Program-made: the position numbers and the translations under genes
Notes under the pieces: generated by a model
Seen by the model: only the letters and a program-made list of their open reading frames with translations
The model's database searches: none
Told to the model about the DNA's origin: nothing
Shown here: one piece after another, positions 1-19,231 of the stretch
Position numbering within the stretch: position 1 is the first letter of the stretch
How the letters are laid out: every line of letters starts with the position of its first letter
DNA from: a virus
Lineage: Duplodnaviria > Caudoviricetes
DNA: 64,000 bases
Virus record (IMG/VR): IMGVR_UViG_3300006143_000006
Coordinates: 1,512 to 65,511 of that record
Reading direction: 5' to 3' (one strand)

Positions 1-1833
1 TTCACGGGCATTTTCCCATGCGGCTACATATGCGTCAGCGTCATACTTAAACCCTTCTGCATCTGGATTGATAATATCCGGGGATATAAACTGTACGAAT
101 GATTTAAAATCATCTGTACCAACTTTTCTCTGCTTATATAACTCATTTGCCTGGTTTGCAAATTCAGCCATGGAATTCCAGTCAGCGTCCTTATTCTCGG
201 ATTCAAATGCAGCCTTTACGCCGTCTACAGAACCGTCAATAGAGTTAATGGCTTGCTGTGCTTCTTCGGCAGATTGCACCAGTCCACTAAAGTAATCGTC
301 AAATACAGCTTTTTTGCCATCCCCAGTGATACCGAGGTCATTAAGGGTGATACCCATTTCATGAAGTGCGTCAGTTGCCTTTCCCCCAGATTTTACAGCC
401 TCTAGGAGTTGGTCTTTGATTGTATTGGATGTTTTGGAGCCGTTGAAGTAGGATTCAATTTGTTTTACTTGTTTTCCGGTTGGAGAAAGATCTATATTAG
501 TTACAGAATCTAATGCTTTTTCTAATTCTCTAATTTGGGCAGCATTTGCAGAGGGATCTAATTTTAAAGCATCAAGTTGGCTTTGGATAGTTTCCGAACG
601 GGAATCTATATCGGAGTAAAGTGTGTTGATAGATTCTTGATAACGTTTAAGTTCTTTTTCGGCTTCTTTTAATTCAATGTTTTTTCTAAAATATCCGTCA
701 TCCCAAATTGAAAGTTCAGATGTTTCTTCTTTTAATTTTACAATCTTTTCTTCTAAATTGGGTATCTCGGATTCATATTCTTTAATTAAAGCCAAATCTT
801 CTTTGAGTGCTTCGGTATCAGTTGATTTACCAACCTCGCCTTTAAATGTCTTCTCGCCTTTGGAATCACCCATTTTGACACTTTGAGCAACACTATGGTC
901 TTCTTTAGTCATTGCTTCTTTTGCATCATTGATGGCTTCTTGGGATTGGATAGCTAATAATCTCTCTTGTAATTGTATTTTCCGTTCCAGTTCAGCGTTT
1001 TGTGACTGTAAATTTTCTAACTCGGTTTCTTCAGCAACAGTAATAGTACCTGCGTCTTGTAATCCTTGTAATTCTGTAATACGAGACTGAGTTGTTTCTA
1101 ATTCAGAATTTAGAGATTCTAGATTAGACTTTGTATCTTGATATTTTTGTGAAGACTTTTGTAAAGCAGTGTTTGCCTCTTTATAGTCTATAGTTAATGC
1201 GTCTTCAAGTGCCACAGCAGCAACTGCAGCGGCAGACACCCATGTTAGGGGATTAGTGGCTAGTGTTGTGAATAGGTTTTTGGCGGAAGCGGCTATGCCA
1301 GTAAATATGTTTGGAAGGGTGGATGACGTTTGGTTCGCTGTTGTGCCAAGGTCGATGATGGAATCGGAGAGTCCATCAACAGAATTCAAGGCATCTAAAA
1401 CAGTTTGCTTATAATTATTTACGTTGCCGGAGTCTAAAACTGCTGACAATCTATTATGCATTTTATCTGATAGCTTACCACTTTCTAATAACTTTGTACC
1501 AATTTCATCCAAGTTGTCTCCAAATTCATTTACAGCTTTTCCCCAAGTTAATTTACCAGAGGCAACTTTCTGTGTGAATGTTGCGTCTTTTCCCATTGCA
1601 ATTAGTTCGGTTGTCAATGAATCAGTTAAACTCATAGTTGCAGCTTTAGCTTGTATTTGCGCTGTTGTAAATTCACTTAAACCATTAGTATTTATTTTAA
1701 ATTCTTTGTTAAGCAATTCAGTATGTATGTTTTGCATATCACTTAAAGAATTGTATCCTTTAAAAGTTCCTGCAAACATTTCATACAATCCATGACTTCC
1801 ATCAAAGTTAAATAGACTCCCTAAATCATTAAA
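1..1833 (-). CDS. Tape measure protein, predicted exon 2 (C-terminal part, runs off window)
   Basis: Manually checked stop-free minus frame from 1833 to 1 (611 codons, FNDLGSLFNFDG...ATNPLTWVSAAAVAAVALED...coiled coil); missing from ORF track because it runs off the edge; no RBS/start at its 5' end. Confidence 0.85.
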
Positions 1834-1918
1834 CTGCAAGTATATTTCATAATAATATTGGCTTTATCACATGAAATATGATATAATTTAGAAAATTTAT
1901 TTTACGAGGTGGAATATT

Positions 1919-2506
1919 ATGGCATTAGTTATTTGTCCCGAATGTAAAAAAGAGATAAGTGAATATACAGAGAACTGCCCTACATGTGGATTCCCTTTAA
2001 AAAATTTTATAGAAGAAAAAAATTTTTTTAATATATCTGGTGTATTAGTTTGTCCTAGGTGTGCAGAGATTTATAACGGTTGGGATTTAAAATATGGACT
2101 TCCACAACATTTAAAATGTGATTATTGTGATACCATTCTTGTTCAAACACAAGAAGATACAGAAACATTATATAAATTAAGTATATTAAAAGAAGATGAA
2201 GAAAAATATAAAAACGTATCAATTGAGATAGCGAAAAAATATGGAAATAATCAATTCTCTCAAGAAGAATACAATAAACGTGTTAACAAAATGAAATCTG
2301 ATAATGATGAATGGTTAAAACAGCATGAAAATAAAAATTTACAACAACAATTACAACCCCCAAGTACCTCTAAATGTCCCAAATGCGGTTCAACAGCGAT
2401 AGAAGCAACTCAAAAGGGATATTCCTTATTAACAGGTTTCATAGGTTCTGGTAAAACAATGAATTATTGTAAAAACTGTGGACATAAGTGGAAACTAGGG
2501 AAATAA
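1919..2506 (+). CDS. Zinc-ribbon protein (double Zn-ribbon N-terminus, C-terminal CPKCGS...CKNCGHKW ribbon)
   Basis: Multiple CxxC pairs; RBS GAGGTGG and TGaTATAAT extended -10 upstream (~1878-1887). Confidence 0.8.
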
Positions 2507-2518
2507 TATTTGTTTATG

Positions 2519-2546
2519 ATAACTGTGGATATGAGTGGTAGGAGAG
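2519..2546 (+). repeat. 28-bp direct repeat ATAACTGTGGATATGAGTGGTAGGAGAG (copy 1), encodes NCGYEW-stop
   Basis: Identical copy at 6216-6243; remnant of a zinc-ribbon gene 3' end. Confidence 0.9.
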
Positions 2547-2732
2547 AATAATCACAACTCAACGTAATGATTATAATGGTTTTTCTTAATAATATTATAT
2601 TGTTGGAGTAGTCTTTTTGCCTTATAGTATAAAGATAATATGATATAATATATAATAGTTTTTTTCTTCTTATTAACAGATTCGCCAATATAGTCTATTA
2701 TTATAATTTAAATCACCTCCTGGAGGAAAAGT

Positions 2733-3452
2733 ATGATTGATAAAAGAATAGAAGCACATGTACAATTTTTATGGGATAAATTTAATAGTGAAATTGAAGA
2801 AATTCCACATATTGAAAAAATTAATCTTGTAACCAATAATAAGTCTTGGGTATATTTCCCTATAGATGATTTATATAATCAAAAATATATAATGTATATT
2901 AATGATAAAATAAAAGAACAACCAAAAGAATTATTTGAACAAGTTTTATTTCATGAATTTGTACATATTTATGATTCAATAAAGTTAATAAAATATAATA
3001 TTAATGATTTTAAAAAATTAATGAATATATATTCTGAAATCCATGCGTCTGAAATTCTAATGGATAGATTACTAATTACACAAAATAAAAAACCATACAG
3101 ATTAGAAAACATTGTAATTCATAATGTCAGTATACCATTATATTCTTTCATGGAACAAACTGCTAATTCATTGAAAGAAGAATTTACTTTTAATAAACAA
3201 ACAATATTGAAACAGACATATAACTATAAATCAATATATTATTATATTGGATACATTTTGTCTTTAGAAAAACATGGAATTCAATACACATATAATTTTG
3301 AATATATTAATCGTTCATTGTCTGATTTATTATATAAAATACTAAATAGTTTTATTATAAAAAATTATACACCTGAATTACTAATTCAATATGAAAATGA
3401 TTTAAAGGGAACTATTTTGAATTTAGTAAAAGAAACATTGGGATTAGCATAG
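2733..3452 (+). CDS. Putative zincin-type metallopeptidase-like protein
   Basis: LFHEFVH (HExxH) plus downstream YSEIHA glutamate; GGAGG RBS. Confidence 0.6.
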   Translation: MIDKRIEAHVQFLWDKFNSEIEEIPHIEKINLVTNNKSWVYFPIDDLYNQKYIMYINDKIKEQPKELFEQVLFHEFVHIYDSIKLIKYNINDFKKLMNIYSEIHASEILMDRLLITQNKKPYRLENIVIHNVSIPLYSFMEQTANSLKEEFTFNKQTILKQTYNYKSIYYYIGYILSLEKHGIQYTYNFEYINRSLSDLLYKILNSFIIKNYTPELLIQYENDLKGTILNLVKETLGLA

Positions 3453-3703
3453 ATATTTTGTATATTATTCTGGGCACTATAATCGAACTTATGATAGTCT
3501 TAATACCCTTCACCTAATACCTTCTTCTTAAAAAGTTCGATAATTCTATAACATTCAGAATTACTAACTTGATTAGAATATAGTGTTCTTACAAGCATAT
3601 TGGCAATATAGTTTTCTTTTTCCATTTGTTTATTTACTTGCGCAACTGCATCGACCATATTAATATTGTTCATTTTTCACCAACTTTCTGAAAGGAGATT
3701 TTT

Positions 3704-4156
3704 ATGAAATTAGAACCTGATTGTGTACGTGATGTTTTACTATATCTTGAATCCCATTTAGAATATGTAGAAAGAAATGATCACGGATTAGAACATAATG
3801 AAATCAATTTTAGTTCAATTTCTGATGCCTTATTACAAGAACATAATTATAGCAAAGATTCTGTTAATTATGCTATTGAAAAACTATTGGAGGTAGGATT
3901 TATCACCTCTAACAAGCAGGTATATGGAAATAAAAAAACTATTCTTTCTTCTCCAATTTCTGATATTACATGGAGTGGACATCAATTCCTAAACAACATA
4001 CGCAAACAATCTATTTGGGATGCAACAAAATCTGGTGCCAAAAAGATTGGTGCTACTTCTATATCTGCTTTCAATATGATTGCAATGGAAATTGTCAAAA
4101 CTATTGTAACAAAACCAGAGGTAATAAACAGTATAATAAGCGAATTTCATCTTTAA
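3704..4156 (+). CDS. DUF2513-like winged-helix protein
   Basis: MKLEPDCVRDVLL start and ITWSGHQFLNNIRKQSIW motif typical of DUF2513; AAGGAG RBS. Confidence 0.8.
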   Translation: MKLEPDCVRDVLLYLESHLEYVERNDHGLEHNEINFSSISDALLQEHNYSKDSVNYAIEKLLEVGFITSNKQVYGNKKTILSSPISDITWSGHQFLNNIRKQSIWDATKSGAKKIGATSISAFNMIAMEIVKTIVTKPEVINSIISEFHL

Positions 4157-4223
4157 TATGGAATTAACACCTGTTGTATAGGCGGTATAATAAGTGTTTA
4201 CACATGAAGTACAAGGAATAATC

Positions 4224-4265
4224 TACTGTGCTAATTGTGGACACACATGGAAACCAGGGAAATAG
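4224..4265 (+). pseudogene. Remnant 3' end of a zinc-ribbon gene (YCANCGHTWKPGK-stop)
   Basis: Matches C-terminus of 1919-2506 ([13 protein letters not shown]-stop); no intact upstream frame. Confidence 0.75.
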
Positions 4266-4365
4266 TGTGGCATTGGCTTTATAGAATGAAAAATTTTATT
4301 TGTTGTAAAAATTAGCAACTTATAGAGTATAAAATTTGATTATTTAAAGTTAGTGGGAATACAAT

Positions 4366-4390
4366 AAAAGACACCAGATGGTGTCTTTTT
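4366..4390. terminator. Bidirectional intrinsic terminator
   Basis: AAAAGACACC-AGAT-GGTGTCTTTTT between convergent genes. Confidence 0.8.
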
Positions 4391-4396
4391 GTAACA

Positions 4397-4783
4397 CTAT
4401 TTTGTAAAATTTAAAAATGGAAGATTTAATGGTTTCATCCCTGCCTGTGTTGTTATCAAAGATATTATAGGTCTTGCATATGATAACAAAACTGTAGGAG
4501 CATTTATTTCTAATAATTTATCAAAAGATATTCCTTGAATTTCTCCGTCTAATTTAAAATGTGCGCCAATTATTAAGTTTATAAAAAACGGAAATTCAGA
4601 AGAATCCTCACCAATTTTGATTTCTAATTCTACAACCGCTTCATTAGTGCTTTTTTTATCAATATTATTATTTAGAGACACGTTTAAAATATCATTTGAG
4701 ATATTAGCATTGTCACCATTTTTTATTTCAAAATCTAATTTGACTAGTTTAGGATTTGAAAACTTAAAATTACTTTTTTCCAT
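4397..4783 (-). CDS. SecB-like chaperone
   Basis: INAPTVLLSYARPIISLITTQAGMKPLNLPFLNF is the SecB-family C-terminal signature. Confidence 0.85.
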   Translation of the reverse strand: MEKSNFKFSNPKLVKLDFEIKNGDNANISNDILNVSLNNNIDKKSTNEAVVELEIKIGEDSSEFPFFINLIIGAHFKLDGEIQGISFDKLLEINAPTVLLSYARPIISLITTQAGMKPLNLPFLNFTK

Positions 4784-4801
4784 TTTTATATTTCTCCCTA
4801 C

Positions 4802-5449
4802 TTATGCTGCATATAATATCGCTTTATAATCATCTAGTTCTTCAGAATTCATATTATCGTTTGTTTCGTATTCGATTTCAACCTCTGCTTGGAAAGAAAT
4901 TTTAGTGTCTGAATTTGTAATATTCATTGATAATTCTTCATACGCTTTATAAAAACTTTGTAAAATTTGTTCGTTAGAAATTGTCAAATCAAAAATGTAT
5001 TGTTCAAAATTATTTTTATCAAAGAGATGGAGAGGTAACGTTAAAGAAACAGAAGAATTTTTTATTTTGTTAATATAATCAGTTAAATACTCTTTCATTT
5101 CCAGATATTGATCATTTAATGGTAATTCATCCTCATCAATATCATTATATTCAGTGAGAACATAATTTATTTCTTTTTCAAAGGGTTTATTCGCAACTAT
5201 AACAGATTTGTTTTTATACACACTAAGAACGGTACATTCGTCATTTATAACATCTAATAACTCATTATTTGATATTTTTACAATAATCCATGATTCTTCA
5301 TCAATTATATCGTCACATACACATAAATATCTACTCTTATTCTTATCAATACATACAAATATAATAGGTATATTTTCAAAAGAAAACAGTTCTTCTTCTA
5401 AATATAACGTTCCTATTTGTGGTACGTTTTTAAAATACTCATTACTCAT
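4802..5449 (-). CDS. Putative antitoxin (DUF6575-like N-terminus, acidic tail)
   Basis: FSFENIPIIFVCIDKNKSRYLCVC motif; probable ATG at 5449 overlaps upstream stop; sits between toxin-like and SecB-like genes. Confidence 0.55.
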   Translation of the reverse strand: MSNEYFKNVPQIGTLYLEEELFSFENIPIIFVCIDKNKSRYLCVCDDIIDEESWIIVKISNNELLDVINDECTVLSVYKNKSVIVANKPFEKEINYVLTEYNDIDEDELPLNDQYLEMKEYLTDYINKIKNSSVSLTLPLHLFDKNNFEQYIFDLTISNEQILQSFYKAYEELSMNITNSDTKISFQAEVEIEYETNDNMNSEELDDYKAILYAA

Positions 5450-5909
5450 TATAATTTTCCTCTTTATACTGCTCACAAATTTCAAAATTATTTTTTATTT
5501 TTTCAAAATTTCCTTTATAAATCCACCAATCGACATGATCTTTATCTTTATAATTAGGTATACGATCTTTTGTCAATTGGGATAAACCACATATAGTATT
5601 TCCGTGAATTAAAATTGGATGTGGATACTGTTCATGATACCTTCTCTTAATAAAATTTAAAAACTTTTCAGGGGATTTAGGAGAAAGATAACATGAAGTA
5701 GAATATAGACCTATTTCATCAGGACTTTTCTTACTTTTTCTATCTTCATATTGATATTCTTCATAACTACACCAAAACGTTGATTCATTAATTATACCGC
5801 TTTTTGAAACCCGATATACATGTTGTTCATTCTGTTCTTTACCATTTCTGTAAATATCTTTAATTAACTCTTGTGGTATACAATCTGCTAAGTTAGACCC
5901 TCTATCCAT
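5442..5909 (-). CDS. Putative ADP-ribosyltransferase-fold toxin
   Basis: VYR ... STSCY ... HVDWW pattern resembling the R-S-x ART fold; first gene of a coupled triad. Confidence 0.55.
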   Translation of the reverse strand: MDRGSNLADCIPQELIKDIYRNGKEQNEQHVYRVSKSGIINESTFWCSYEEYQYEDRKSKKSPDEIGLYSTSCYLSPKSPEKFLNFIKRRYHEQYPHPILIHGNTICGLSQLTKDRIPNYKDKDHVDWWIYKGNFEKIKNNFEICEQYKEENYNE

Positions 5910-6094
5910 ATTTTCTTCCTTTGTTTTTAAATTTACTATTATATTATAAAGGTAAATAATGGAAAAGTCTATACAAACATATATTCGATTTTATACCATA
6001 AATGTCAAAAAGTCAAGATTTTATTGTTTATTGAACGTAATAACTTAGCAGGAATCTTCCAAAATAATTTACTGGACGTTATGAAGAGACACAA

Positions 6095-6238
6095 ACTCCC
6101 AAATGCTCAACATGTTAGTCAACTAACATAAAAAAGATATTGACAACATAAAAAGTAGCAAATACAGCATTATTTGGATTATTTGGGACTAAGAGACATA
6201 AAACATTCCACTGTAATAACTGTGGATATGAGTGGTAG
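6095..6238 (+). pseudogene. Decayed zinc-ribbon gene 3' half
   Basis: TPKCSTC*STNIKKILTT*KVANTALFGLFGTKRHKTFHCNNCGYEW-stop, two in-frame stops. Confidence 0.8.
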
Positions 6239-6243
6239 GAGAG
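6216..6243 (+). repeat. 28-bp direct repeat (copy 2)
   Basis: Identical to 2519-2546. Confidence 0.9.
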
Positions 6244-6289
6244 TGAGAGTAGTAAGATGGGATTCGTTCTTGAATCTCATCTTACTACT

Positions 6290-6982
6290 TTAGTACATAA
6301 TCTTATTATTCTTTTCCATTAATGAAATTAATTTACTATATTGCTTGGCAGATAAAATTCTTTGCAATTGATGTGTTTCTGCTAAAGATAAATTATTTAA
6401 TGTGATATTAAAAAGATAAATCATTATTGCATCAAATTGTTTGGTAAGATTAATTAAATCAGTGTGAACTTGATTGATAAATTTACTATCATTTTTTAAA
6501 ATTGTTTCCAAGAATCCAATTCCTTGATTGTTAGTATTTTTATCATGAACATCATTAGAATATTTTGCATAATACGTATATATGTATTCTAAGTTTTCGT
6601 TTTTAACACGAATGGAGTTATTTCTCAATTTTAAATCATCTTTTATATGTCTGTAGCTTGTTTTGTTTATTTTATCAGCAGAATAATTAAAACAAATAGA
6701 ATATAAAAACTTTAATAACTGTTCGATAGAATATCTCATGCAACCATTTATACCTATTCCGTCATTTACAGGGAGATATATCAATATCTTATTCAAACCC
6801 CATTTATATCTTTGTAAGAATAGTATATTTTCTTGGTTTATTTCAATATTTGAATATTTTAAATATATGTCTGTTAAAATATTATTTTTACATATAATGT
6901 TATAAACATCGTTATATAAGGTGTGATATTTTGAAAAAGGGAAATATTTATCAACAAATTCTTTATATTCACAATTCTTCAT
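6290..6982 (-). CDS. Hypothetical alpha-helical protein, possibly HEPN-like
   Basis: RYSIEQLL and YAKYSNDVH segments resemble degenerate HEPN motifs; start overlaps upstream stop. Confidence 0.45.
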   Translation of the reverse strand: MKNCEYKEFVDKYFPFSKYHTLYNDVYNIICKNNILTDIYLKYSNIEINQENILFLQRYKWGLNKILIYLPVNDGIGINGCMRYSIEQLLKFLYSICFNYSADKINKTSYRHIKDDLKLRNNSIRVKNENLEYIYTYYAKYSNDVHDKNTNNQGIGFLETILKNDSKFINQVHTDLINLTKQFDAIMIYLFNITLNNLSLAETHQLQRILSAKQYSKLISLMEKNNKIMY

Positions 6983-7373
6983 TGCTCCCCCTTCTATATT
7001 TGTTCATTATATCAGACATATAGTTACTTTTCTTTTTCTTTTTCTTTTTTGTTTGTTGTTCATTAGATGAGGAATTTTCTTTCATTTCTAACTTTTTTTC
7101 TAGTGTATTGATATATAATTGTATTTGTGATTCGTCAGCTTTTTCAATATTACGTAATATTTTTCCTAACATCGTTGTTCTGCTTTTCAACAAATATGGT
7201 TTATAACTAATTTTTAATTCTTTTAAGAAATCAGCAATATTTACATTTAAAGGAAATTCTTCCTTTGACAGAATAAGGTCAACTACAATTCCATATAATT
7301 CTAATTTGATTAGTTCAAGATCTGATGTTTTTTTAATGTGTGTTATCCGTTTTATTATTACTTTTTTGTTCAT
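6969..7373 (-). CDS. Hypothetical protein with basic C-terminal tail
   Basis: 134 aa ORF overlapping both neighbours; KKKKKKK tract. Confidence 0.6.
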   Translation of the reverse strand: MNKKVIIKRITHIKKTSDLELIKLELYGIVVDLILSKEEFPLNVNIADFLKELKISYKPYLLKSRTTMLGKILRNIEKADESQIQLYINTLEKKLEMKENSSSNEQQTKKKKKKKSNYMSDIMNKYRRGSNEEL

Positions 7374-8229
7374 TATATTTATTTACCTCTCTTTCAAATT
7401 CATTACTAATCTCTACTATATTATTCTTCAAAGCTTCGTCTTGTCTATCTATAATGAATTTAGATAATTGAGATGTAATCATTTTTTCTGATTTCATAAA
7501 GTAATTTTCAAATATGTAAATATTTTTATTAGATAAAGCTTCCTTTATTTGAAGCATATTATTTTGAATTCCAGCTTTATACCCATTAGGTATTTTTGTA
7601 AATATTATGCCTAGATTATCTAATGGTTTGCATTGAAAATTCGCTTTATATGTGTTTTTAGCATGTTTTACAACTTCTTCTAATAAATCAACACCTAATA
7701 AGGAATATGCATCAGGCACAACAGGAACGATGTATAAATCACATGCAAAAAAGGTTGCAATCGTATAAAAAGAATAAGTAGGAGGACAATCTATAAATAT
7801 GTAATCATATTTTTCTTTTAGATTATTATCTTCTATAAAATTATTTAATTTTTGTTCAGAAGCTCCGCTTCCAGTTTCCCTTTCCATAAATATAGCATGT
7901 AATTCACCCGGGATAATATGTAAATTATTATCTAACTTATAAATAGTTTTTTCCAAAGTTACTTGTTCAAGCCTACCAGAACTTTGAGAAAAAATATTCT
8001 CAATAGATGGGAGATGTCTTGGTTCTGTTATAATTTTATCTTCTTCATGTCCTAATACATTGTATCTCTCAAAAAAGGATTGTGTACAGTTTGATTGTGG
8101 ATCCATATCTATTATTAATATCTTTTTTTTATTTATATTAGATAAGCACAGTGCAATTTCTTTACACAATGTTGTTTTACACACACCACCCTTCATATTT
8201 AAAAACGCTATTATGTTCCTTTTTTTCAT
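7333..8229 (-). CDS. ParA/MinD-family ATPase
   Basis: Deviant Walker A KGGVCKTT, IDMDPQSN, Walker B FIDCPP. Confidence 0.9.
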   Translation of the reverse strand: MKKRNIIAFLNMKGGVCKTTLCKEIALCLSNINKKKILIIDMDPQSNCTQSFFERYNVLGHEEDKIITEPRHLPSIENIFSQSSGRLEQVTLEKTIYKLDNNLHIIPGELHAIFMERETGSGASEQKLNNFIEDNNLKEKYDYIFIDCPPTYSFYTIATFFACDLYIVPVVPDAYSLLGVDLLEEVVKHAKNTYKANFQCKPLDNLGIIFTKIPNGYKAGIQNNMLQIKEALSNKNIYIFENYFMKSEKMITSQLSKFIIDRQDEALKNNIVEISNEFEREVNKYNEQKSNNKTDNTH

Positions 8230-8915
8230 TTGTATTATCCTCCTTGCGACCTTACAGTGTAATTGTACTATATTGTATCTGCTATTTCAATAATAAATAA
8301 GGATGAAAGATGAAGAGGAGATGAGAGGATATGGTAAAACACTTAAGGGGTTTTTTTATCTATAATTTAATGTAGGAACTTGAAAAGTTACATAAGAGTT
8401 AGTATTGCATATTTTTATAAGATTGATCACATCATTTTTTTGAATCTGACCATGTTTATAAGATTTTTTACAATCTTCAGAAGATAAAGGACATTGAGTG
8501 TTCTCTTTACGGGCTACGTCCATAATTTTTTTGAAAAGCTCTTTCGGAAAAAGTGATCTATTATATTTAATTCTATAATAATCACCTACTTTTCAGTTAT
8601 AAAAAGACAGACAATGTAGGTGTCTTTTAGAGTGCTTTTTATCAGCTTAATCGTTAAATTGTTTTTATACCATTTTATTTATATTATTCTGAATATGTAT
8701 CGTCTGTTAGAGAAAACTGCTACTCGATCATCTTCTTAACCATATAACCCACCGACAGAACCATTCCTTGGATTTGTCGAAATTAAAAAAATATGTCGCA
8801 ATATTCCTTGGCATATGTTATAATATAAAGGGTTTCTCAATAGTAGGTGAGTGAGGAGAGCAGTGGTTCTCCCTATTCGCTTACTATTTTTATTATGAAA
8901 TAGGAGAGTACACAA

Positions 8916-9512
8916 ATGAAAAAATACCTACATAAAACCAACAAAAATCATTATTTTTCAGTAAAATTCATCAACTATATTTGTCTGTTCACATTTATGT
9001 TAATGTTAATTACTGGATGTTCTGGCAAAGAAGAAAATTTACAACAAAAGGTTGATGATTTAACTTCACAATATGAAGAACTACAAAAAGACCATGAAAC
9101 TCTTAATGAAGAATATAAGAAATTGCTGTCAGACTATGAAACATTGCAATCTGAAATAGAGAAATACCAGGATCAGCAAGCTACGATTGATGACCTAAAT
9201 AGTAAACTTACAGAATTACAAAATCAAAATAATGCCTTACAATCTGAAAAAGAATCATTAGCTTCTCAAGTATCAGCATTACAAACAACACAATCACAAA
9301 ACAATGATTCATCAGGAGGCAATGGATGGAGAGTTTCAGGTGTGATTTCAAATTCATCAGATGACTCAGGAGCTACGGTATGGCTATCGGAAACAGGAGA
9401 TAAATATCATAGTATAAATAACTGTGGACGTATGAATCCTAACAAAGCCAGACAAGTATCCCAATCATCAGCAGAAGCTAGTGGGTATGGAAGATGTAGC
9501 AAATGCTTTTGA
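8916..9512 (+). CDS. Putative lipoprotein: coiled coil plus C-terminal Cys/His metal-binding domain
   Basis: Signal peptide with LITGC lipobox, heptad repeats, VWLSETGDKYH...C...CSKC tail. Confidence 0.75.
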   Translation: MKKYLHKTNKNHYFSVKFINYICLFTFMLMLITGCSGKEENLQQKVDDLTSQYEELQKDHETLNEEYKKLLSDYETLQSEIEKYQDQQATIDDLNSKLTELQNQNNALQSEKESLASQVSALQTTQSQNNDSSGGNGWRVSGVISNSSDDSGATVWLSETGDKYHSINNCGRMNPNKARQVSQSSAEASGYGRCSKCF

Positions 9513-9782
9513 TTTAAAAAAATGTGCGAAACTCATATTATTGAGACAGATATTAGCATAGGTTTAAACCATAGTATGATACAATGCAATATTTATGATA
9601 TATCTTATCAAGAACATCAGCTTCTTGAGAGTATACGTCCTGAGTCAATATGGGGGACTAAAAATATAGCAAATTCTATAGTAAACTATTCATTAAATTT
9701 ATAGAAGATACAGTTCAAAAATACGCAGTAACTGCAACGGCAGTAATATTTAATAATTTAAAAAAATCCATAAAATATAAAA

Positions 9783-9817
9783 GTTAATCCTCGTGCATTG
9801 AAAGCACGGGGATTAAC
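9783..9817. terminator. Strong hairpin terminator (T-tract on minus strand)
   Basis: GTTAATCCTCGTGC-ATTGAAA-GCACGGGGATTAAC flanked by A/T runs. Confidence 0.8.
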
Positions 9818-9873
9818 ATTTTCCACTTATTAAGTTGTTTATAAATTCTATAGCAACATATTGTTATCAATTT

Positions 9874-10041
9874 CTACAACACAATACACTGATATCTTCT
9901 CTTATCCGAATATATTCTCAGTAGTTCATCCAGAGTATCAGAATTATTACCATAAATTTCATCATAGATCTTGGAATATAATCCAGACTTATCTATTACC
10001 AGAAGCCTCCAGGTATTGTCGTTAAATTCAAAATGATTCAT
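9874..10041 (-). CDS. Small hypothetical protein (55 aa, MNHFEFNDNTWRLL...)
   Basis: GGAGGTG RBS before ATG; below ORF-track cutoff. Confidence 0.4.
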   Translation of the reverse strand: MNHFEFNDNTWRLLVIDKSGLYSKIYDEIYGNNSDTLDELLRIYSDKRRYQCIVL

Positions 10042-10196
10042 AATACACCTCCGAATATCTTTGATGTGATTATGATATCATAGTGGGTGTAGAGAAATCT
10101 GGACAGTGGGAGAAAAACTAATAATAAAAGAAAGAAATTGTTACAATTTGTTTTATTAAACTATATATAATTTCAACAATTTCTTTCTTTGATTAT

Positions 10197-10664
10197 TTAT
10201 CGTCTGTTTTTTCTTTCTTTTTTATTTTTTGGTTTTACACTGTTAAAATAATTTTCGTCTATTTTTGAAAAGGAATATTGTGTGATGAAAAACAACATAC
10301 CTAACAATTCAACAATAGTTGCAGAAATATAGTATTTAAGAAAATTTAATAGAGAAGATGTAATTGAAGTAGATAACTTATTAAAATTAGTATAATTTAC
10401 AATAATAGAAACAATTATAAATCCGATAATTAAATTAAAAACTATCAATTGAAAAACTATCAATCCTCTTATGAAACCAACAATTTTATCTCTCAATGCT
10501 TGTTTCTGTTTTTCTGCGTTAAAAAATAATTCATTAAAATTATCGATTTCTTTATCTTTATCTTTGCCTTTGAGATAAGATATAGGAGTTTGTTTTGTTG
10601 ACATCTCCTTTATGTAAATATCAAATAATGGATTATTAGACATTAGTATTTTACTCCGGTACAA
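10197..10664 (-). CDS. Two-TM membrane protein
   Basis: Hydrophobic segments LIVFQLIVFNLIIGFIIVSII and YYISATIVELLGMLFFI; overlaps upstream peptidase stop. Confidence 0.7.
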   Translation of the reverse strand: MYRSKILMSNNPLFDIYIKEMSTKQTPISYLKGKDKDKEIDNFNELFFNAEKQKQALRDKIVGFIRGLIVFQLIVFNLIIGFIIVSIIVNYTNFNKLSTSITSSLLNFLKYYISATIVELLGMLFFITQYSFSKIDENYFNSVKPKNKKERKNRR

Positions 10665-11277
10665 TAATTTTATCTAAGATGTCATCATAATATGGTATTT
10701 TTAAAACTTCTAATCTACCTCTCATGACTGAGATTGAAACCTCAAAAATTTCTGCTAAGGCTTTAATAGAAGGTTTCATTAATCGATTTATTATATTATT
10801 TAAAGAATGTTTTGGGATTAATAATTCTCCAGCAAATGTATTTGCTTCAATTTCTTTAACAGAACCATTATTTGAATTATTACGAAATTCAATATATCCA
10901 TCTTGTAAAGAATTTCCATGGAGACAACAATGACCAAGTTCATGTGCAACGGTAAATCTTCTCCTATGTAATGAATCTGTTTCTTTATAAAATATTCCAA
11001 CATCGTTTCCGTCTAATAATACTAGGCCTGAAATTTCACCAAGATTTTTAAACTCTTCACTTTGTTCTAAATAATCAAAACTTGTTCCTACCTTTTTTAT
11101 CTTGAGATTGTCAAGAATAACATCAAGATTTACAGGTACTTGATTTAACTGACCAGTTTTTAATAAAATGGTTTCTGCGGACATTTTATTAAGTTTGTTT
11201 AATGTTTTACACATATAATCACCATCCATCCTAAGTAAAGCTTTTTGATATAAATAAAAATTCATATTTTTTGACAT
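10651..11277 (-). CDS. ImmA/IrrE-family metallo-endopeptidase
   Basis: RRRFTVAHELGH (HExxH) and EIEANTFAGELLIP, C-terminal HTH-like segment. Confidence 0.9.
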   Translation of the reverse strand: MSKNMNFYLYQKALLRMDGDYMCKTLNKLNKMSAETILLKTGQLNQVPVNLDVILDNLKIKKVGTSFDYLEQSEEFKNLGEISGLVLLDGNDVGIFYKETDSLHRRRFTVAHELGHCCLHGNSLQDGYIEFRNNSNNGSVKEIEANTFAGELLIPKHSLNNIINRLMKPSIKALAEIFEVSISVMRGRLEVLKIPYYDDILDKIIVPE

Positions 11278-11584
11278 AACCTATTCCTTTATATAAATAA
11301 TATAAAGAAGTATATCATTTTAAAATATAAAATTATATCAAAAAAGGCAAAAAAAATAAAAGATATAACTACATATCATAACACAGATATAATGTCTTCG
11401 TCAATATATTCTTTTTTTCTAATAATATCTTAGCATAAATTGCAAAATTTGTAAATATTTTTTTGATAAAAAATACTTGACAAACTATATGAAAAATAGT
11501 ATATAGAACCTTTATTTATAAATAAGCATGTTTTATGTAAAATGTCAAGAGATTTTTTTTGTAAAATATTAAATGTCAAAATTA

Positions 11585-12033
11585 TATTTCCCATGCCAAT
11601 AACGGTTGGGAACACACCGGACGGCTTACCGTCATCTTGTTATTTTATCTTGGACTATACATTACAAGCAAATGTAATAAGGTTTACATTTGCTCGGAGG
11701 AACGGTAGTCTCTGAACGTCCCACTATATCATATAGATATGTTGGTGCGCTGCTGATCAGTTAGTCGGATATACATTACATATCCTTTGCCCTTACGCTA
11801 GGTACTTAGGAACATCTCCCGATGTCTTTTTTTCACCATATACCATCTCGCTAATTTTTTCTGCTTTCGCCGCATATCACGCTTGCCGTTTCCAGCTACG
11901 TTGTAGCTTAACGAGCATTAGGCTTCCCAGCAATTACTCCTCCAGTTTGAGAACATGACACCACACGATTGTCCATGACACCATTTTCGTCACTTTCTTT
12001 CATATGGATTAGACCAGTTTAATAATAAAACAA
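11585..12033 (-). ncRNA. Group I intron catalytic core
   Basis: P AATTGCTGGGAAG (11935-11923), Q GATCAGCAGCG (11758-11748), R GTTCAGAGACTA (11717-11706), S ATGTATAGTCC (11662-11652); P3 GGAGGAG/TTCCTCC; 12-bp P8; P9 GACGG-TAAG-CCGTC. Confidence 0.92.
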
Positions 12034-14085
12034 ATCTAGGTTCTTAAAGAATGATACAGCACCAATAGTGCCTAATGATGCAGGTATTCCATTCCCCACA
12101 TCTAAAATGTTTGTTAAAATATCTAAAAATGCTGTTCCAGAGTCAATAACGCCTTTAAAAAGATCAGAACTTAATGTTGTATTAGATAGATTTTGAAAAG
12201 ATGCTTTGAACTGTTGTATTTTTGCTTCTATAGATTCTAGCCAACGTTCTTGCTCTTGCATAGCAGAACCTTCAGCATTTAATGTAGCTGCATATGCCTT
12301 TTGTACTTGCCCAGATTGAAATGCCTGTATAACAGCAGCACCTTGATTACCTCTATTTTTTCCAAACATTGTTTCAAGTAGATCTGCACGTTTTGTCTGA
12401 TCTAACTGATTCCATACTTTAGACACATCTTCTAAAATATCATAGTAATCTCTGAACTTTGTTGGGTCAGCTGAATCCATGATATTTACTTGACCTTTAG
12501 TAAGATTAAGAATGTGTGTTTGTATTTTACTAACAGACTCTAAACCTTCTGATTCTTCACCTAAGGCCTCCAAATCACCTTTCATACCTTGAATACGCAT
12601 CTGTCCAATCTTAAGAGCGTTTCCTAATTCTCCAGCAGATTGAGTGATTTCTGCTCCACCTGTAAGCATTGCAAGAGCTTTGTTCAGATCTGTCCCACCT
12701 AATGACATCATAGATGCTGCATGTGACATACCCTCACCCAAATCTTTAGCTGAGGTGGCGAACTCATTTCCAAGTTTATTATATTTGTCAACAATGGATA
12801 ATGCATCATCATACTGAATATCATAAGCCTTCATGACCGTCACAAGGTCGCTAACAGCAGTTTTATCATCAACTTCTCCAACATTAGAATAAATCGAACT
12901 GATTTTTGCTAAATTAGCACTAGAATCCATAGAATATCCTAGTTTTGCCCATTCACTTGTTTGAGTAATATATGAGGATATATCACGTCCTACATCTTTA
13001 GCTGTTTTCCCTGCATTACTTAGGAATTTATTGTATTTGTTTGAAGTCTCATCTGTGACTTTATACAAATTTGTCATGGCAGTATCGATATCAATGACAG
13101 CTTGCGCCATTTGTTTTGTAATATCAACACCGTTTTGTAGTACACCATAAACGCCAACAAACTGTCCGATTTGGCTGAACCCTCTCTTCATTTCAGTCCA
13201 AAAACTATTCCCCACGGCACCTTTTTCCTGGGCAGTAGAAACAATGGCTTTAAATTGTTTATTGTAATCTGCTAATTCTTCAGAACTTGTTGCAGATTTT
13301 TGTTTGTTAGCCAACTCAGTCAACGCTTCTCCAAATTCTTTTGCAGCTTTTGTATTATTATTTAGCCAGGTAAGCGTTTTGTTAGAAGAAGTAGTAGCAT
13401 CCAAAATGCTAAAAGGTTTTCCGATAAGTTTAATTTCATTATTAAATTTCTTTGCTGCTTCAGATAACTTATTAAATTCTGAAATAAGATTATTGTCAGA
13501 TAATTCACTTGTTTTATTAAAGTGCTTTGATATTTTAGAATATATTTTTTCGTATTCATCAGCATATTGTTGAAGTTCTTGATTATTTAAATTAGAATAT
13601 TTCTCTAATTTGTTCTGAATACTATTTCTTTGCGCTTTGTAATCACCTAATTCAAACTTTCTTGAAAATTCAGCAATCTTTTTCTGTTGTTCGTCGTAAA
13701 TTTTATTTAGTGCTTGTTTTTCTTTTTCAATAGCGTTTTGATTAGCTTTAGCACCACTAAATGCAATTTTATTTGGAACATTATAATCTTTTTCTAATTT
13801 TTTTGCGTCTTTTACAGCATCTTTGTACTTTTGAAAATAATCATCGTAATTAAATTTTACTGATTTAATACCTTGGTTAAAATTTTTCCCAATGTTTTGT
13901 CCAGTTTTCATAGCAGTAGTATTTAAACCAGACATCTGTTTTTCTAAAAGTTTACCAAGATCAGTACCATCACCAGATAATTTTACGTCTAGTTTTATCT
14001 TTTGATTCTTTTGTAAATTTTTTAACTGAGCTTCTACTTTACTGGTATCTAATACAGCTTGTATTTGTGCAATAAAGTCTGACAA
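12034..14085 (-). CDS. Tape measure protein, predicted exon 1 (684 codons; unspliced ORF stops at 12019)
   Basis: TP901-type TMP motifs (IDTAMTNLYKVTDET, EWAKLGYS, GTDLNKALAMLTGGAEITQ); ends at ...FFKNLD before intron P1. Confidence 0.9.
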
Positions 14086-14179
14086 ATAATCACTCCTTTA
14101 CATACAAAAAGCAGAAGGATCAACGACAAAATGCCAATTCTTCTGCTAAATAAAATTATATATTAATTTTTATTATGTT

Positions 14180-14623
14180 TTATAAAAATTTATAATGTGG
14201 TTTTTCTTCGCCGAACAACCAATAACGCAAATAATCATCAAGCACAATTGCTAAAAATGATATAAAGAACCAGATTATAGAAAAAGGTAAACAAATTTGT
14301 CCTAAAATATTAAAAGGTAAATCGCTATAATCCCATACATTCCATTTAAAGATAAGGTTTACAATAATCCCTGTTATAAATTCTAATGTCGTAATAATCA
14401 TAGTTCCAATTAGCATTTGCTTATATATCAGCATATCCCATTCAATATGTTCATTAATGCGTCCAATGAGATAAAACGCCAAACCTCCTACAATAACCAT
14501 AGACCAATGAGTGTATCCTCGATATATAATTTCAATGAGTGAATAAATTAATCCACCTATAGTTATAAGGATAAACGGTTTAAAAACACTGGATTTATGA
14601 GAAAATCGAATTTTCACTACCAC
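14180..14623 (-). CDS. Putative membrane protein (phage-associated 'putative ABC permease' / CmpB-like family)
   Basis: EIIYRGYTHWSM...WDYSDLPFNILGQICL motifs, 4 TM segments. Confidence 0.8.
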   Translation of the reverse strand: MVVKIRFSHKSSVFKPFILITIGGLIYSLIEIIYRGYTHWSMVIVGGLAFYLIGRINEHIEWDMLIYKQMLIGTMIITTLEFITGIIVNLIFKWNVWDYSDLPFNILGQICLPFSIIWFFISFLAIVLDDYLRYWLFGEEKPHYKFL

Positions 14624-14640
14624 ATACCCCTTCCTTTAAG

Positions 14641-15636
14641 TTACACAATATATTTTTTATGATTATATTGAACACTATCTTGTGATATTTTTGCATAAAT
14701 CATTGTAGTATCAATTTTTGCATGTCCTAACATTGCTTGAACATCAGTTATATTCATCCCTCGCTTTAATGCATCTGTGGCAGTAGTATGACGAATTAGA
14801 TGCGGATATAAATTTCTGCCAATATTAGAACGTTTTCCGATAATTCTGACAATTCTTTCTATACCTGTCTTGCTTAAACGTTGATAAGGTTTCCTTTCTG
14901 ACACAATAAGAGCATTATTATCATCGTTTCTTGTATGTAGATACTTTTTTAAATACACTTCCGATTTCGCATTTAAGTATGATGTGCGATGCTTGTTACC
15001 TTTGCCAAACAAAAACACTTCTCCAGATTTAAAATTTATATCACTTTTATTTAAATTTACCATCTCTGATACACGACAACCAGTGCTATAGAATAACTCT
15101 ATAATTGCTTTTTCTCTCAATGTAATACAACTATAACGAACTAATTCAAGTTCTATATCACTTAATGGTTCTCGTGGTTTTTCTTCATATTTAATAGGTT
15201 GTATCTGGTCACAAGGATTCTTTTTTATATATTCCTCGTTTTTGCACCATTCGAGAAAAGTATGTATTACTACACGTTTTCCATCCAAAGAATGATTTGA
15301 TATATTCCTACGTTTCTGAAGATTATATAAATAAACTCGTATATCGTTTGTTGTTATCTGATCCAGAGGTTTTTCTATATACATAAAGAAATCTCTGAGA
15401 TATAAATCGTAAATTTTTAATGTACCTTCACTAAGACCTTCTATTCGCTTGGAAATTAAGTATACCTTATAACATGATGGTATAATATCATTATAAGACA
15501 AAATGTCCGTACTCTTGCCTTTGATATCATAATCATTTGAAAATATTTCTAATTCTTGTAATACTAATTTTAAATCTTCATTATTTAGTTTTCCGTTTAA
15601 TTTTAATATAAATTCCTTCGCAAATGTATTAGTCAT
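14641..15636 (-). CDS. Tyrosine recombinase (XerD-like with SAM-like N-domain), candidate cassette invertase
   Basis: TGCRVSE, GKGNK, HLIRH, LGH...Y catalytic residues. Confidence 0.92.
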   Translation of the reverse strand: MTNTFAKEFILKLNGKLNNEDLKLVLQELEIFSNDYDIKGKSTDILSYNDIIPSCYKVYLISKRIEGLSEGTLKIYDLYLRDFFMYIEKPLDQITTNDIRVYLYNLQKRRNISNHSLDGKRVVIHTFLEWCKNEEYIKKNPCDQIQPIKYEEKPREPLSDIELELVRYSCITLREKAIIELFYSTGCRVSEMVNLNKSDINFKSGEVFLFGKGNKHRTSYLNAKSEVYLKKYLHTRNDDNNALIVSERKPYQRLSKTGIERIVRIIGKRSNIGRNLYPHLIRHTTATDALKRGMNITDVQAMLGHAKIDTTMIYAKISQDSVQYNHKKYIV

Positions 15637-17350: not shown

Positions 17351-18073
17351 TTACTTAGCATCCTTTGATTTAGATGCGCCAGAAACAGATTTCTTTCGAT
17401 TAGATTTTGGCAATGTGGATTTCATTTCAATAACATTTTTCTTGTGATTATCACTTTTAAGATATTTTTCGGTAACTAGTTCAGCTAATTTACCAAAATC
17501 CATTTCTTCATTCAACATCTTCTTATTTAATGAAGCAGTTTCTTCTGGAGTCATATAGCTCATTACTTTTTCTCCATAGTTATTTTGGTTGATTTGCTGT
17601 AATAACATTTTATTTTCATTTTGTGCAATTTCTAGTTTAAGAACTTCTAACTGCTTCTGAACCTCCAAAATTTCTAACATTTTGTTATTAAATACTGGAT
17701 TATTGTGTATAATTTGTTGCTTTTTAAATTCAACCATATCAATTACATCGTTCATAATAGAGTTAATTGTTTCAATCATTTTATTACTAGAAGAATCTTT
17801 TTTTAGATTAGTTGATAGGGTAGTAGTATATAATTCAACAAGTTCTTCATCAGCACAGACAGACTCGTATACTTTCTCATTTTCACCGAATTTAACTCCT
17901 TCAACACAATATAAGAAGAAAATAGTAGTCAATGCAGAATCGATCATATATGGAGTATATGTTAAAGAACCATCATCATTTTCTGTAAAATAAGAATCGA
18001 CAAGATGATTTGTAATAATTGCTCTTTCTTCCATAGTAATAAATTCCTTAATCTTTACATCTGTTTTAACCAT
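17351..18073 (-). CDS. Phage hypothetical protein (tail-region)
   Basis: 240 aa ORF with GGAGG RBS in late operon. Confidence 0.6.
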   Translation of the reverse strand: MVKTDVKIKEFITMEERAIITNHLVDSYFTENDDGSLTYTPYMIDSALTTIFFLYCVEGVKFGENEKVYESVCADEELVELYTTTLSTNLKKDSSSNKMIETINSIMNDVIDMVEFKKQQIIHNNPVFNNKMLEILEVQKQLEVLKLEIAQNENKMLLQQINQNNYGEKVMSYMTPEETASLNKKMLNEEMDFGKLAELVTEKYLKSDNHKKNVIEMKSTLPKSNRKKSVSGASKSKDAK

Positions 18074-18160
18074 TTAAAATCCTCCGATTCATATATAATA
18101 AAAAAGGATCCGTCTATGACAGATCCCTAGCACCTTCATACTTTAATATTTATTGTTCCG

Positions 18161-18406
18161 TTATTTCAGAAATTCCTCAATTTCTTCCAAACTCTTTCCA
18201 GATGAAATCAACATTTCAGCAGCTTTCTGTATCTCTTCTTGTTTTCTTTGCTTTTCTGCGTAAATCTCATATCTGACTTGATCTTTCTTTAACTGTTTCA
18301 GATTTGCTTTTTCCTGTTTCAACTCCGCAGATAACGATTCGATTCTTTCTTCAGATTCCGCGATTAATTCTGAATAATTTTTTTCAACAACTTTCCTTCT
18401 TGCCAT
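18161..18406 (-). CDS. Small coiled-coil protein
   Basis: GGAGG RBS, heptads. Confidence 0.6.
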   Translation of the reverse strand: MARRKVVEKNYSELIAESEERIESLSAELKQEKANLKQLKKDQVRYEIYAEKQRKQEEIQKAAEMLISSGKSLEEIEEFLK

Positions 18407-18515: not shown

Positions 18516-18713
18516 TTAAGTATCATTATAAATACAGTATTTCCAATATGTTCCAAATTTGTCCCACGACTCAAAATAATTTCCAAATGGTTTATATATT
18601 GTATGGTCAATCTGTGGAGAGGAATAGATTATGTTTCTATATAATGATGACGGAATAGAATTATTGTATTGATTTAAAAGTTTTGTAATTTCATATGAAT
18701 AAATATTTTTCAC
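18516..18713 (-). CDS. Small hypothetical protein
   Basis: Start overlaps RecU stop. Confidence 0.5.
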   Translation of the reverse strand: MKNIYSYEITKLLNQYNNSIPSSLYRNIIYSSPQIDHTIYKPFGNYFESWDKFGTYWKYCIYNDT

Positions 18714-19231
18714 ACTTTCTTTGACATAATTAAAAATTTTTCTATGTCATATCTATAATTTACTTTCAATTTCTTTTTATTAATTTCTATTGGGGTGCAA
18801 GACTCGAATAAGTCTATTTCATTAAAAGATTTTTTGCCGATTGTGTTTATCATATGGTTAAAATCTCTAATATTACAAAAATACGTTTTTTCGCTCAAAC
18901 GAAAATCAAAGATAAATCCACTTATAACATTTTTATATGTAGAAAACTTAGTAAGATTATCAATCTGGTGCTTATGTATTACACCTCTATCAGTTTTATC
19001 ACGTTCAAACGAAATCGATTTTGTACCTACACATTTTAGTTCAAGTGTGTATAATGTATTTCCATCAAATAAAAAACAGTCACAAGGTGATTTCGCACTA
19101 AACCTTAAATTTTGATTATTTCCAAACGACTGAGCGGAGTCTGGAGGTCTATAGTAGAATATATAATCTGGAATGGATTTTTTCCAGTTTTGTTCAAAGA
19201 TTTTTCCAACATTTTTGCTAATGTATATCAC
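18710..19231 (-). CDS. recU: RecU-family Holliday junction resolvase
   Basis: GKIFEQ, SPCDCF, LELKC, HQIDNL nuclease motifs. Confidence 0.8.
   Translation of the reverse strand: MIYISKNVGKIFEQNWKKSIPDYIFYYRPPDSAQSFGNNQNLRFSAKSPCDCFLFDGNTLYTLELKCVGTKSISFERDKTDRGVIHKHQIDNLTKFSTYKNVISGFIFDFRLSEKTYFCNIRDFNHMINTIGKKSFNEIDLFESCTPIEINKKKLKVNYRYDIEKFLIMSKKV

Follow-up and report, generated by a model that had tools for sequence, protein, structure and literature searches.

The 64,000-nt stretch of phage DNA analysed here, in the following called the window, comprises bases 1512-65511 of a 65.5-kb IMG/VR virus record, and its gene for the tape-measure protein (TMP) is interrupted by a 10.2-kb element. 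With a probability of roughly 0.58 we regard this element as a true group I intron which splices in cis and which belongs to a family situated at one TMP codon (after KN[FL]D) of Lachnospiraceae phages. RNA-level joining of the exons, be it in cis or in trans, appears fairly probable from the sequence comparisons described below. All large genes of the window, including the terminase-like, portal and virion-protein genes, are carried on the minus strand. The relatives of the TMP come from mouse-gut Lachnospiraceae prophages, and DNA nearly identical to the window is present in 14 mouse-gut DNA runs from six studies. Comparison loci are designated L0xx or P0002.

The interrupted gene consists of two parts:

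12034-14085, minus strand: TMP exon 1, 684 codons ending in ...FFKNLD; the open reading frame as such spans 12019-14085 (688 codons) and has an AAGGAG ribosome-binding site
1-1836, minus strand: TMP exon 2, starting with QFNDLGS... and running for 1,115 codons to the contig start, where it is still open

Exon 1 contains a PhageMin_Tail domain (Pfam PF10145, E 1.2e-19), and its alignment with long TMPs (1,200-3,400 residues) ends at residue 684, that is, at the last exon codon (T12034). Past T12034 the frame continues for four more codons and then stops. The exon 2 frame opens at 1839 and stays open to the window start and from there to the contig start. Combined, both exons encode a TMP of at least 1,799 codons. 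An earlier note on this DNA had likewise proposed a long in-frame TMP, of at least 1295 codons. For exon 1 a dN/dS of 0.08 was obtained with saturated synonymous sites (pS 0.67, window copy versus L003); exon 2 was too diverged for such an estimate, its synonymous sites being saturated as well. A search with exon 2 against deposited phage genomes and IMG/VR gave no matches. Exon 2 of the related locus L023 resembles the window exon 2 from the first codon on: exon 2 begins QLKELGNLFNFDGSHG... in L023 and L024 and QFNDLGSLFNFDGSHG... in the window, and these starts are very alike.

It could be argued that the halves are made as separate proteins, with exon 2 being translated from TTG at 1839 and the ribozyme core being irrelevant to expression. 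An in-frame TTG or ATG is indeed found a few codons upstream of the start of homology in the window, L011, L015, L017 and L009. However, none of these starts has a ribosome-binding site. In the window no such site was found before the exon 2 frame opening or before any in-frame start within the first 75 codons; most genes of this phage have a ribosome-binding site of at least 5 nt. Moreover, exon 2 of L003 extends over 35 codons without a start codon. Because of the missing ribosome-binding site and the startless frame of L003, independent translation of exon 2 is unlikely and joining at the RNA level is the natural reading. In addition, unbroken homologues run continuously across the junction, and the pairing of the intron guide with the exon 2 start co-varies, which would be needless for a separate gene. 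Overall, we consider a gene split into two proteins very unlikely.

Downstream of exon 1 the minus strand contains the elements of a group I ribozyme:

12010-12038, minus strand: P1 helix of 5 bp, exon TAGAT (12038-12034) with guide GTCTA (12014-12010)
11594-12033, minus strand: group I ribozyme core of about 440 nt with P2, P2.1, P3-P9 and a further hairpin
11943-11937 with 11702-11696, minus strand: P3, GGAGGAG with TTCCTCC, read from the sequence
11932-11927 with 11756-11751, minus strand: P4, TGCTG(G) with (T)CAGCA, read from the sequence
11710-11706 with 11657-11653, minus strand: P7, GACTA with TAGTC, read from the sequence
11694-11684 with 11677-11667, minus strand: P8, a stem of 11-13 bp
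11633-11620, minus strand: P9, GACGG/CCGTC, read from the sequence

The earlier note had read exon 1 as ending with CTAGAT at 12034, TAGAT and GTCTA as P1 with a U.G pair at the splice site, and P3, P4, P7, P8 and P9 as listed; all of this agreed with a base-by-base check of the minus strand. The wobble pair U12034.G12014 is located at the predicted 5' splice site, and the P1 loop contains an in-frame stop (TAA, 12021-12019). The structured part ends after P9 and one further hairpin, about 440 nt from the 5' splice site. Every helix of the core can be drawn, and AAUUGCUGGGAA, UCAGCAGC and GUUCAGAGACUA agree with the consensus of the Rfam group I model RF00028.

The part of the core comprising P3-P5 (11827-11935) shares 75-80% identity with unannotated stretches of Staphylococcus and Enterococcus Herelleviridae. 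The matching spot of the Enterococcus phage phiEF17H is a 366-nt gap which splits the ribonucleotide reductase gene (nrdE). This nrdE intron matches the full RF00028 model with 41.9 bits (E 2.9e-9), and the window core aligns with it through P3-P7. When IMG/VR was scanned with the pattern of the P7-P3' stretch, only the contig of L003 was matched.

Using the end of exon 1 as query, 17 viral and 21 bacterial loci were found. Six of these, all from Lachnospiraceae phages or prophages (L003, L023, L024, L025, L026 and L031), carry the window-type intron directly after the same KNLD codon. Their cores are 81-86% identical to the window core; the value for L003 is 85%, while the synonymous sites of the adjoining exon 1 are saturated. 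In the alignment of the seven cores RNAalifold predicted 129 pairs, 21 of which are kept through changes on both sides. These compensated pairs lie in P1, P2, P2.1, the P5 extension, P6/P6a, P8 and P9; P3, P4 and P7 are invariant across the seven copies and hence yield no covariation. In P1, for instance, the base at exon position -4 forms an A-U pair with the guide in the window, L003 and L031 and a G-C pair in L023-L026. The assignment to group I made in the earlier note is supported by the homology to the phiEF17H nrdE intron, by the copies at the same site, by the co-varying P1 and P10 and by the 21 compensated pairs.

The copies differ greatly in length. The compact copies L023-L026 measure about 1.2-1.3 kb and consist of the core, about 100 nt (about 105 nt in L023), an antisense zinc-ribbon gene and an 85-nt tail. 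Large cargo is found in L003 (7.4 kb), in L031 (more than 2 kb to the contig end) and in the window (10.2 kb). Homology between the window and L023 stops at 11594 and restarts at 2521, which identifies the window intron as a compact element with about 9 kb inserted:

1919-2506, plus strand: resident antisense zinc-ribbon gene, the sole open reading frame of the compact introns, with zinc-ribbon matches in Pfam and 73.5% DNA identity to L023 11528-12120
2522-11593: extra cargo absent from the compact relatives, about 9 kb, with a G+C content of about 0.22-0.31 compared with 0.34-0.39 in the exons

A syntenic cargo piece (window 10113-9874) is common to the window, L003 and L031, and from this the swollen state seems older than the divergence of the three. 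Nearly all relatives stop within a few codons of the KNLD site and resume exon 2 1.2-7.4 kb downstream. Unbroken alleles are L004, the only one among the relatives found, and P0002; the first residues of exon 2 align with the residues after KNF[DE] in both. Hence, alleles with different cargo or without the intron, for which a comparative search had been proposed, do exist: L023-L026 are compact, L003 and L031 swollen, and L004 and P0002 unbroken.

At least two further intron types use the same TMP site, and among these, too, both compact and swollen forms occur. Introns with a guide of the ...GGTCTAC type measure 5.4-5.7 kb (L009, L015, L017 and L019); their P10 pairs at 12/12 positions and is top-ranked in L009 and L019, and it reaches 11/12 in L015 and L017. 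Those with a guide of the ...GGGTCTA type range from about 1.25 kb (L032) through 3.9 kb (L016) to about 6 kb (L029). The guides differ between the intron types as the exon 2 starts differ. Compact copies and other lineages with different cargo uphold the view of the cargo as a changeable accessory island. As a separate observation, the Lachnospiraceae isolate C63_86 has three TMP genes with the compact intron on three contigs (L023, L024 and L025); being co-resident, these copies could exchange cargo.

The 3' splice site was sought by means of P10, the pairing of the internal guide with the start of exon 2. For this test the guide was fixed beforehand as the 12 nt located 5' of the P1 strand (12026-12015), and each site preceded by a G was scored. 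Two elements of the intron are concerned:

12015-12026, minus strand: guide segment that forms P10, ATTATTAAACTG, immediately 5' to the P1 strand, pairing at 12/12 positions with 1836-1825
1837-1918, minus strand: intron 3' tail, ending at the proposed terminal G1837 (alternative G1834)

The best partner was G1837|CAGTTTAATGAT with 12 contiguous pairs (11 Watson-Crick pairs and one G.U); the runner-up had 7. This site ranks first among 2,047 downstream G sites and coincides with the opening of the exon 2 frame. Pairing at 12/12 positions is unique among the 19,291 G-preceded sites on both strands of the window, and in unrelated loci 1 of 208,259 such sites reaches it. The P10 of the window is perfect and better than that of the compact relatives. 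At exon position 4 of P10 the exon base and its guide partner are U-A in the window and L003, C-G in L024 and L025, U.G in L026 and C/A in L023. All six copies with a known 3' end (window, L003, L023, L024, L025 and L026) have G|CAG at the site, and the two bases before it vary (TT, TA, CC, CC, TA and AT). In introns of other lineages (L009, L011, L015, L016 and L017) exon 2 is likewise preceded by a G. A blind search for P1 and P10, in which both the 5' splice site and the guide were allowed to float, gave many spurious matches of 10-12 bp inside long frames and was not used.

The earlier note had placed the 3' splice site about 10.2 kb away from the 5' splice site with an in-frame join, and the unique 12/12 pairing agrees with this placement. 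Its exact position, after G1834 with the join KNLD|FNDLG, is in frame, but a splice after G1837 (TTG|CAG), 3 nt upstream and also in frame, is the better prediction, because P10 then becomes contiguous with P1, G|CAG is conserved and the junction aligns without gaps. KNLD|QFNDLGS matches the motif QLK[DNE]LGN of relatives without a gap and can be aligned with KNYG|QLKDLGN of L011, with KNFE-QLKNAS of the unbroken P0002 and with KNFD-NLKNVS of the unbroken L004. Likewise, the proposed P10 strand ATTATTAAA (12026-12018) was found as described, but the 9-nt pairing becomes one of 12/12 with 1836-1825. The predicted RNA junction is AACCTAGAT|CAGTTTAATGAT for G1837 or AACCTAGAT|TTTAATGAT for G1834, and the predicted junction peptide is NLDQFNDLGSLFNFDGSHGLYEMFAGTFK, with or without the Q.

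From the anatomy, the homology, the covariation and the compact and unbroken alleles we infer that the swollen window copy is spliced and that this happens in cis. In its basic form of about 1.2 kb the intron comprises the ribozyme of about 440 nt at the 5' end, the antisense zinc-ribbon gene and an 80-nt tail that ends in the terminal G. The window copy has gained about 9 kb of accessory genes in the interval from the final ribozyme hairpins to the zinc-ribbon gene. Late transcription would read through the entire 10.2 kb, the ribozyme would cut after U12034, held by P1, and the 12-nt guide beside P1 would capture CAGTTTAATGAT. Ligation of the exons after G1837 would then give a single TMP of at least 1,799 residues (KNLD|QFNDLGS). 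Because the cargo genes possess their own promoter-like sites, their expression may not depend on the late transcript.

Several points weigh against this reading. First, the Rfam check that had been proposed for the core failed: at gathering scores no group I call was obtained on the window or on seven related loci, and the window core reached only 10.7 bits (E 8.2) with RF00028, whose gathering score is 50. The weak match covers P4, P6 and J6/7-P7 around the long P5 insert, and evidently RF00028 misses an intron type with such an insert. Second, the P9.0 pairing is short. The sequences AAGATA (11651-11646) and TATACTTGCAG (1844-1834), from which P9.0 had been proposed, are present, but the pairing of 6-7 bp (TATACTT/AAGATA) reduces to 3 bp, in which AAG 11651-11649 can pair with CUU 1840-1838, and the relatives have no matching pairs. 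A conserved pairing of the core with the 3' tail besides P10 was sought, and none was common to the copies. Third, inside a cargo gene of L003, at L003:14789, G|CAGTTTAATAG pairs at 11/11 positions with the L003 guide, whereas the presumed true site at 18388 is weaker, with 8 contiguous pairs and 11/12 in total; the former may be a chance match or a cryptic 3' splice site, use of which would truncate the TMP. Fourth, the TMP strand has a terminator-like hairpin of 10 bp (4389-4366), and genes on the opposite strand take up most of the final 2.5 kb ahead of exon 2. With this hairpin and the antisense genes in its path, a single 10-kb precursor requires read-through. The assembled contigs of four mouse-gut metatranscriptome runs mapped to 1-14100 contained no spliced joint, and each splice site is spanned by an unspliced RNA-library contig (1769-2105 and, from a variant strain, 11956-12259); such contigs drop rare forms and may include DNA, so they carry no weight on splicing either way. 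Finally, P1 and P10 could in principle be relics of a compact ancestor.

This last point leads to the alternative that the gene is dead: the cargo insertions would have disabled splicing, no full TMP would be made from the prophage, and P1 and P10 would be leftovers of the compact intron. The antisense genes and terminator-like sites in the path are in line with this, and the cargo-bearing sequence recurs nearly unchanged in many mouse-gut DNA runs, as would be expected of a vertically inherited resident prophage no less than of an active phage. On the other hand, both exons remain open despite the cargo (684 codons in exon 1, at least 1,115 in exon 2), and the structural module is otherwise intact. 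Compensating changes keep the core helices also in the cargo-laden window copy, L003 and L031, the P10 of the window is perfect and exceeds that of the compact relatives, and swollen introns with intact exons recur in several lineages. We regard a dead gene as unlikely.

The terminator-like hairpins and the convergent gene orientation in the cargo also raise the question whether the late transcript ends in the cargo, another transcript begins farther along the TMP strand, and the exon 1-ribozyme RNA captures this separate tail-exon 2 RNA via the 12-bp P10 and ligates it. The full catalytic core is contained in the 5' piece, the 3' piece would need only the terminal G and P10, and a P10 of 12 bp is unusually long. 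Yet no clear promoter on the TMP strand is situated just upstream of exon 2, the sole strong consensus site (1858-1887) faces the opposite way, no extra complementarity ties the two halves together, and the compact relatives, whose splice sites are the same, are cis introns of the ordinary kind. Trans-splicing is in our view unlikely, though an alternative to be reckoned with.

As a third alternative the cargo could be removed at the DNA level before late expression, like the elements excised from sporulation genes, so that only a compact intron, or no intron at all, stays behind. The TMP gene has a tyrosine recombinase gene 0.6 kb upstream, and an exact 28-nt direct repeat is present inside the cargo (2519-2546 and 6216-6243). 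But the cargo contains no recombinase and has no repeats at its borders, the internal repeat would take out only 3.7 kb, and the upstream recombinase has been read as a component of a tail-fibre inversion system. DNA-level removal is extremely unlikely, and cis-splicing of a swollen group I intron remains the reading that we favour.

Homologues of the zinc-ribbon gene adjoin the 3' splice site on the opposite strand in three intron lineages (L003:17025-17579 and 17930-18310; L016:14362-14826; L029:16480-17019; L009:16326-16613). They have a C-terminal double CxxC motif in common and belong to no known endonuclease family. In the window the opposite strand of the intron tail contains the promoter-like site of the zinc-ribbon gene (1858-1887). 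A promoter-like stretch of the tail is duplicated (1857-1899 versus 4272-4314, 72% identical), and fragments resembling the 3' ends of zinc-ribbon genes are found within the cargo at 2519-2546, 4226-4264 and 6216-6243; the first and the last of these form the exact 28-nt direct repeat, whose copies are 3.7 kb apart. These 3'-end remnants and the second copy of the promoter-like tail stretch suggest that the cargo was built by repeated recombination at the zinc-ribbon gene. The conserved antisense gene may bear on how cargo is exchanged.

The cargo of the window comprises about a dozen genes in all, among them a small membrane protein, a coiled-coil lipoprotein and the following:

10651-11277, minus strand: ImmA/IrrE (M78) metallopeptidase, CapP-like (Pfam PF06114 E 1.9e-17; PADLOC capP E 1e-23)
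6290-8229, minus strand: overlapping three-gene operon with a ParA-like ATPase (7333-8229) as first gene (Pfam AAA_31 E 1.6e-34)
4397-5909, minus strand: three-gene toxin-antitoxin-chaperone-like unit, the last gene being SecB-like (4397-4783; Pfam SecB E 7e-10)
2733-4156, plus strand, against the TMP: a 239-aa protein and a DUF2513 protein (Pfam DUF2513 E 4.7e-21)

The toxin-antitoxin-chaperone-like unit also matches PADLOC PD-T4-9_C (E 9e-12) and PD-T4-10_B (E 1e-6). No endonuclease, transposase or recombinase family was detected among the cargo open reading frames of the window with Pfam and PADLOC; of the homing-endonuclease families, LAGLIDADG, GIY-YIG, HNH, His-Cys and PD-(D/E)XK gave no Pfam match. 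Other swollen copies carry MazF toxins, a GmrSD restriction enzyme, an S24 repressor, an NYN nuclease, DUF3800 and Big_2 proteins. Genes proximal to the core tend to follow the direction of the TMP, and genes near the 3' splice site oppose it. Contigs from mouse-gut RNA libraries match without differences at 4438-5915 (a 1.5-kb contig in the toxin-antitoxin-chaperone-like operon) and at 9835-11039 (the pair of ImmA-like and membrane protein genes), which is consistent with expression of the cargo in the gut; DNA carry-over is possible.

Independently of these genes, a non-coding stretch upstream of the toxin-antitoxin-chaperone-like operon (6097-6237, minus strand) is 74-80% identical to cargo spots in L015, L016 (twice) and L017. 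A regulatory region common to these cargoes or a scar left by recombination may account for it.

We give an even chance to the more general view that the group I introns at this TMP codon serve as exchangeable storage bays for accessory and defence-like genes in Lachnospiraceae phages. The cargo would then be expressed in the lysogen from its own promoters, and the extended P10 would find the distant splice site, so that up to 10 kb leaves the late RNA. The intron would be a device which lets an essential structural gene host an island of accessory genes.

The layout of the window intron resembles that of the phage T4 sunY (nrdD) intron, in which the catalytic core at the 5' end is followed by an open reading frame and a short 3' segment with the splice site. 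That intron has one endonuclease open reading frame and is about 1 kb long; the window intron differs in size and cargo.

Group I introns in prophage TMP genes have been described in the Bacillus cereus group (TMP-IVS1, IVS2 and IVS3; Tourasse and Kolsto 2008, PMC2504315). As in the window, they are in frame in the TMP gene, have a stop within the first 27 intron nucleotides and mostly lack a homing endonuclease, and different introns fit one site via P1 and P10 (PMC2504315). However, they are described as ordinary introns with or without one endonuclease gene, whereas the window intron holds the antisense zinc-ribbon gene and about 9 kb of genes. The hosts also differ, being Lachnospiraceae for the window.

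In the IStrons of Firmicutes a group I ribozyme is combined with an IS element in one unit (Tourasse et al. 2014, PMC4227781). Both in IStrons and in the window a group I ribozyme would render an insertion of foreign DNA harmless to the host gene. In IStrons the foreign DNA lies between the core and the 3' splice site. Unlike them, the window cargo has no transposase by Pfam and PADLOC and consists of changeable accessory genes with promoter-like sites, several of them antisense, and the element occupies one homing-type site instead of being spread over many.

The giant group I intron ND5-717 of hexacoral mitochondria measures 18.1 and 19.3 kb (Chi et al. 2019, PMC6545197). Like the window intron it holds many genes inside an essential gene, and it is still removed from the RNA. 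It differs in being mitochondrial, in carrying its cargo in P8 and not after P9, and in that this cargo is the organelle core gene set. A phage genome exceeding 65 kb could hardly take the route quoted for ND5-717 (PMC6545197).

None of the papers found in the literature searched describes accessory cargo of several genes in a group I intron of a phage or bacterium. Provided that the 10.2-kb copy splices, no bacterial or phage group I intron known to us would come near it in size, and it would be the first shown to carry a multi-operon accessory island in place of one endonuclease or transposase. This would represent a new kind of site for phage accessory and defence-like genes, would account for many "broken" TMP annotations in gut prophages and would offer a natural test of the distance over which a group I ribozyme can find its 3' splice site. 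With matched compact (1.2 kb) and swollen (7-10 kb) versions that have the same splice sites, the question is directly testable.

In some TMP relatives exon 1 is broken a second time, following ...QMRIQG (about residue 498-500 in window numbering). The frame resumes 1.3 kb further on in L017 (8713-10001) and L019 (9734-11022); L039 (Lachnospiraceae MD308) stops at the same residue (L039:3401). A second intron site in the TMP gene is the probable explanation; the frame of the window is continuous at this point. Directly upstream of the window TMP, at the usual place of the tail chaperones, a tyrosine recombinase and a CmpB-like membrane protein are encoded (14180-15636, minus strand), and a resolvase-like gene lies within the structural module at 18710-19231.

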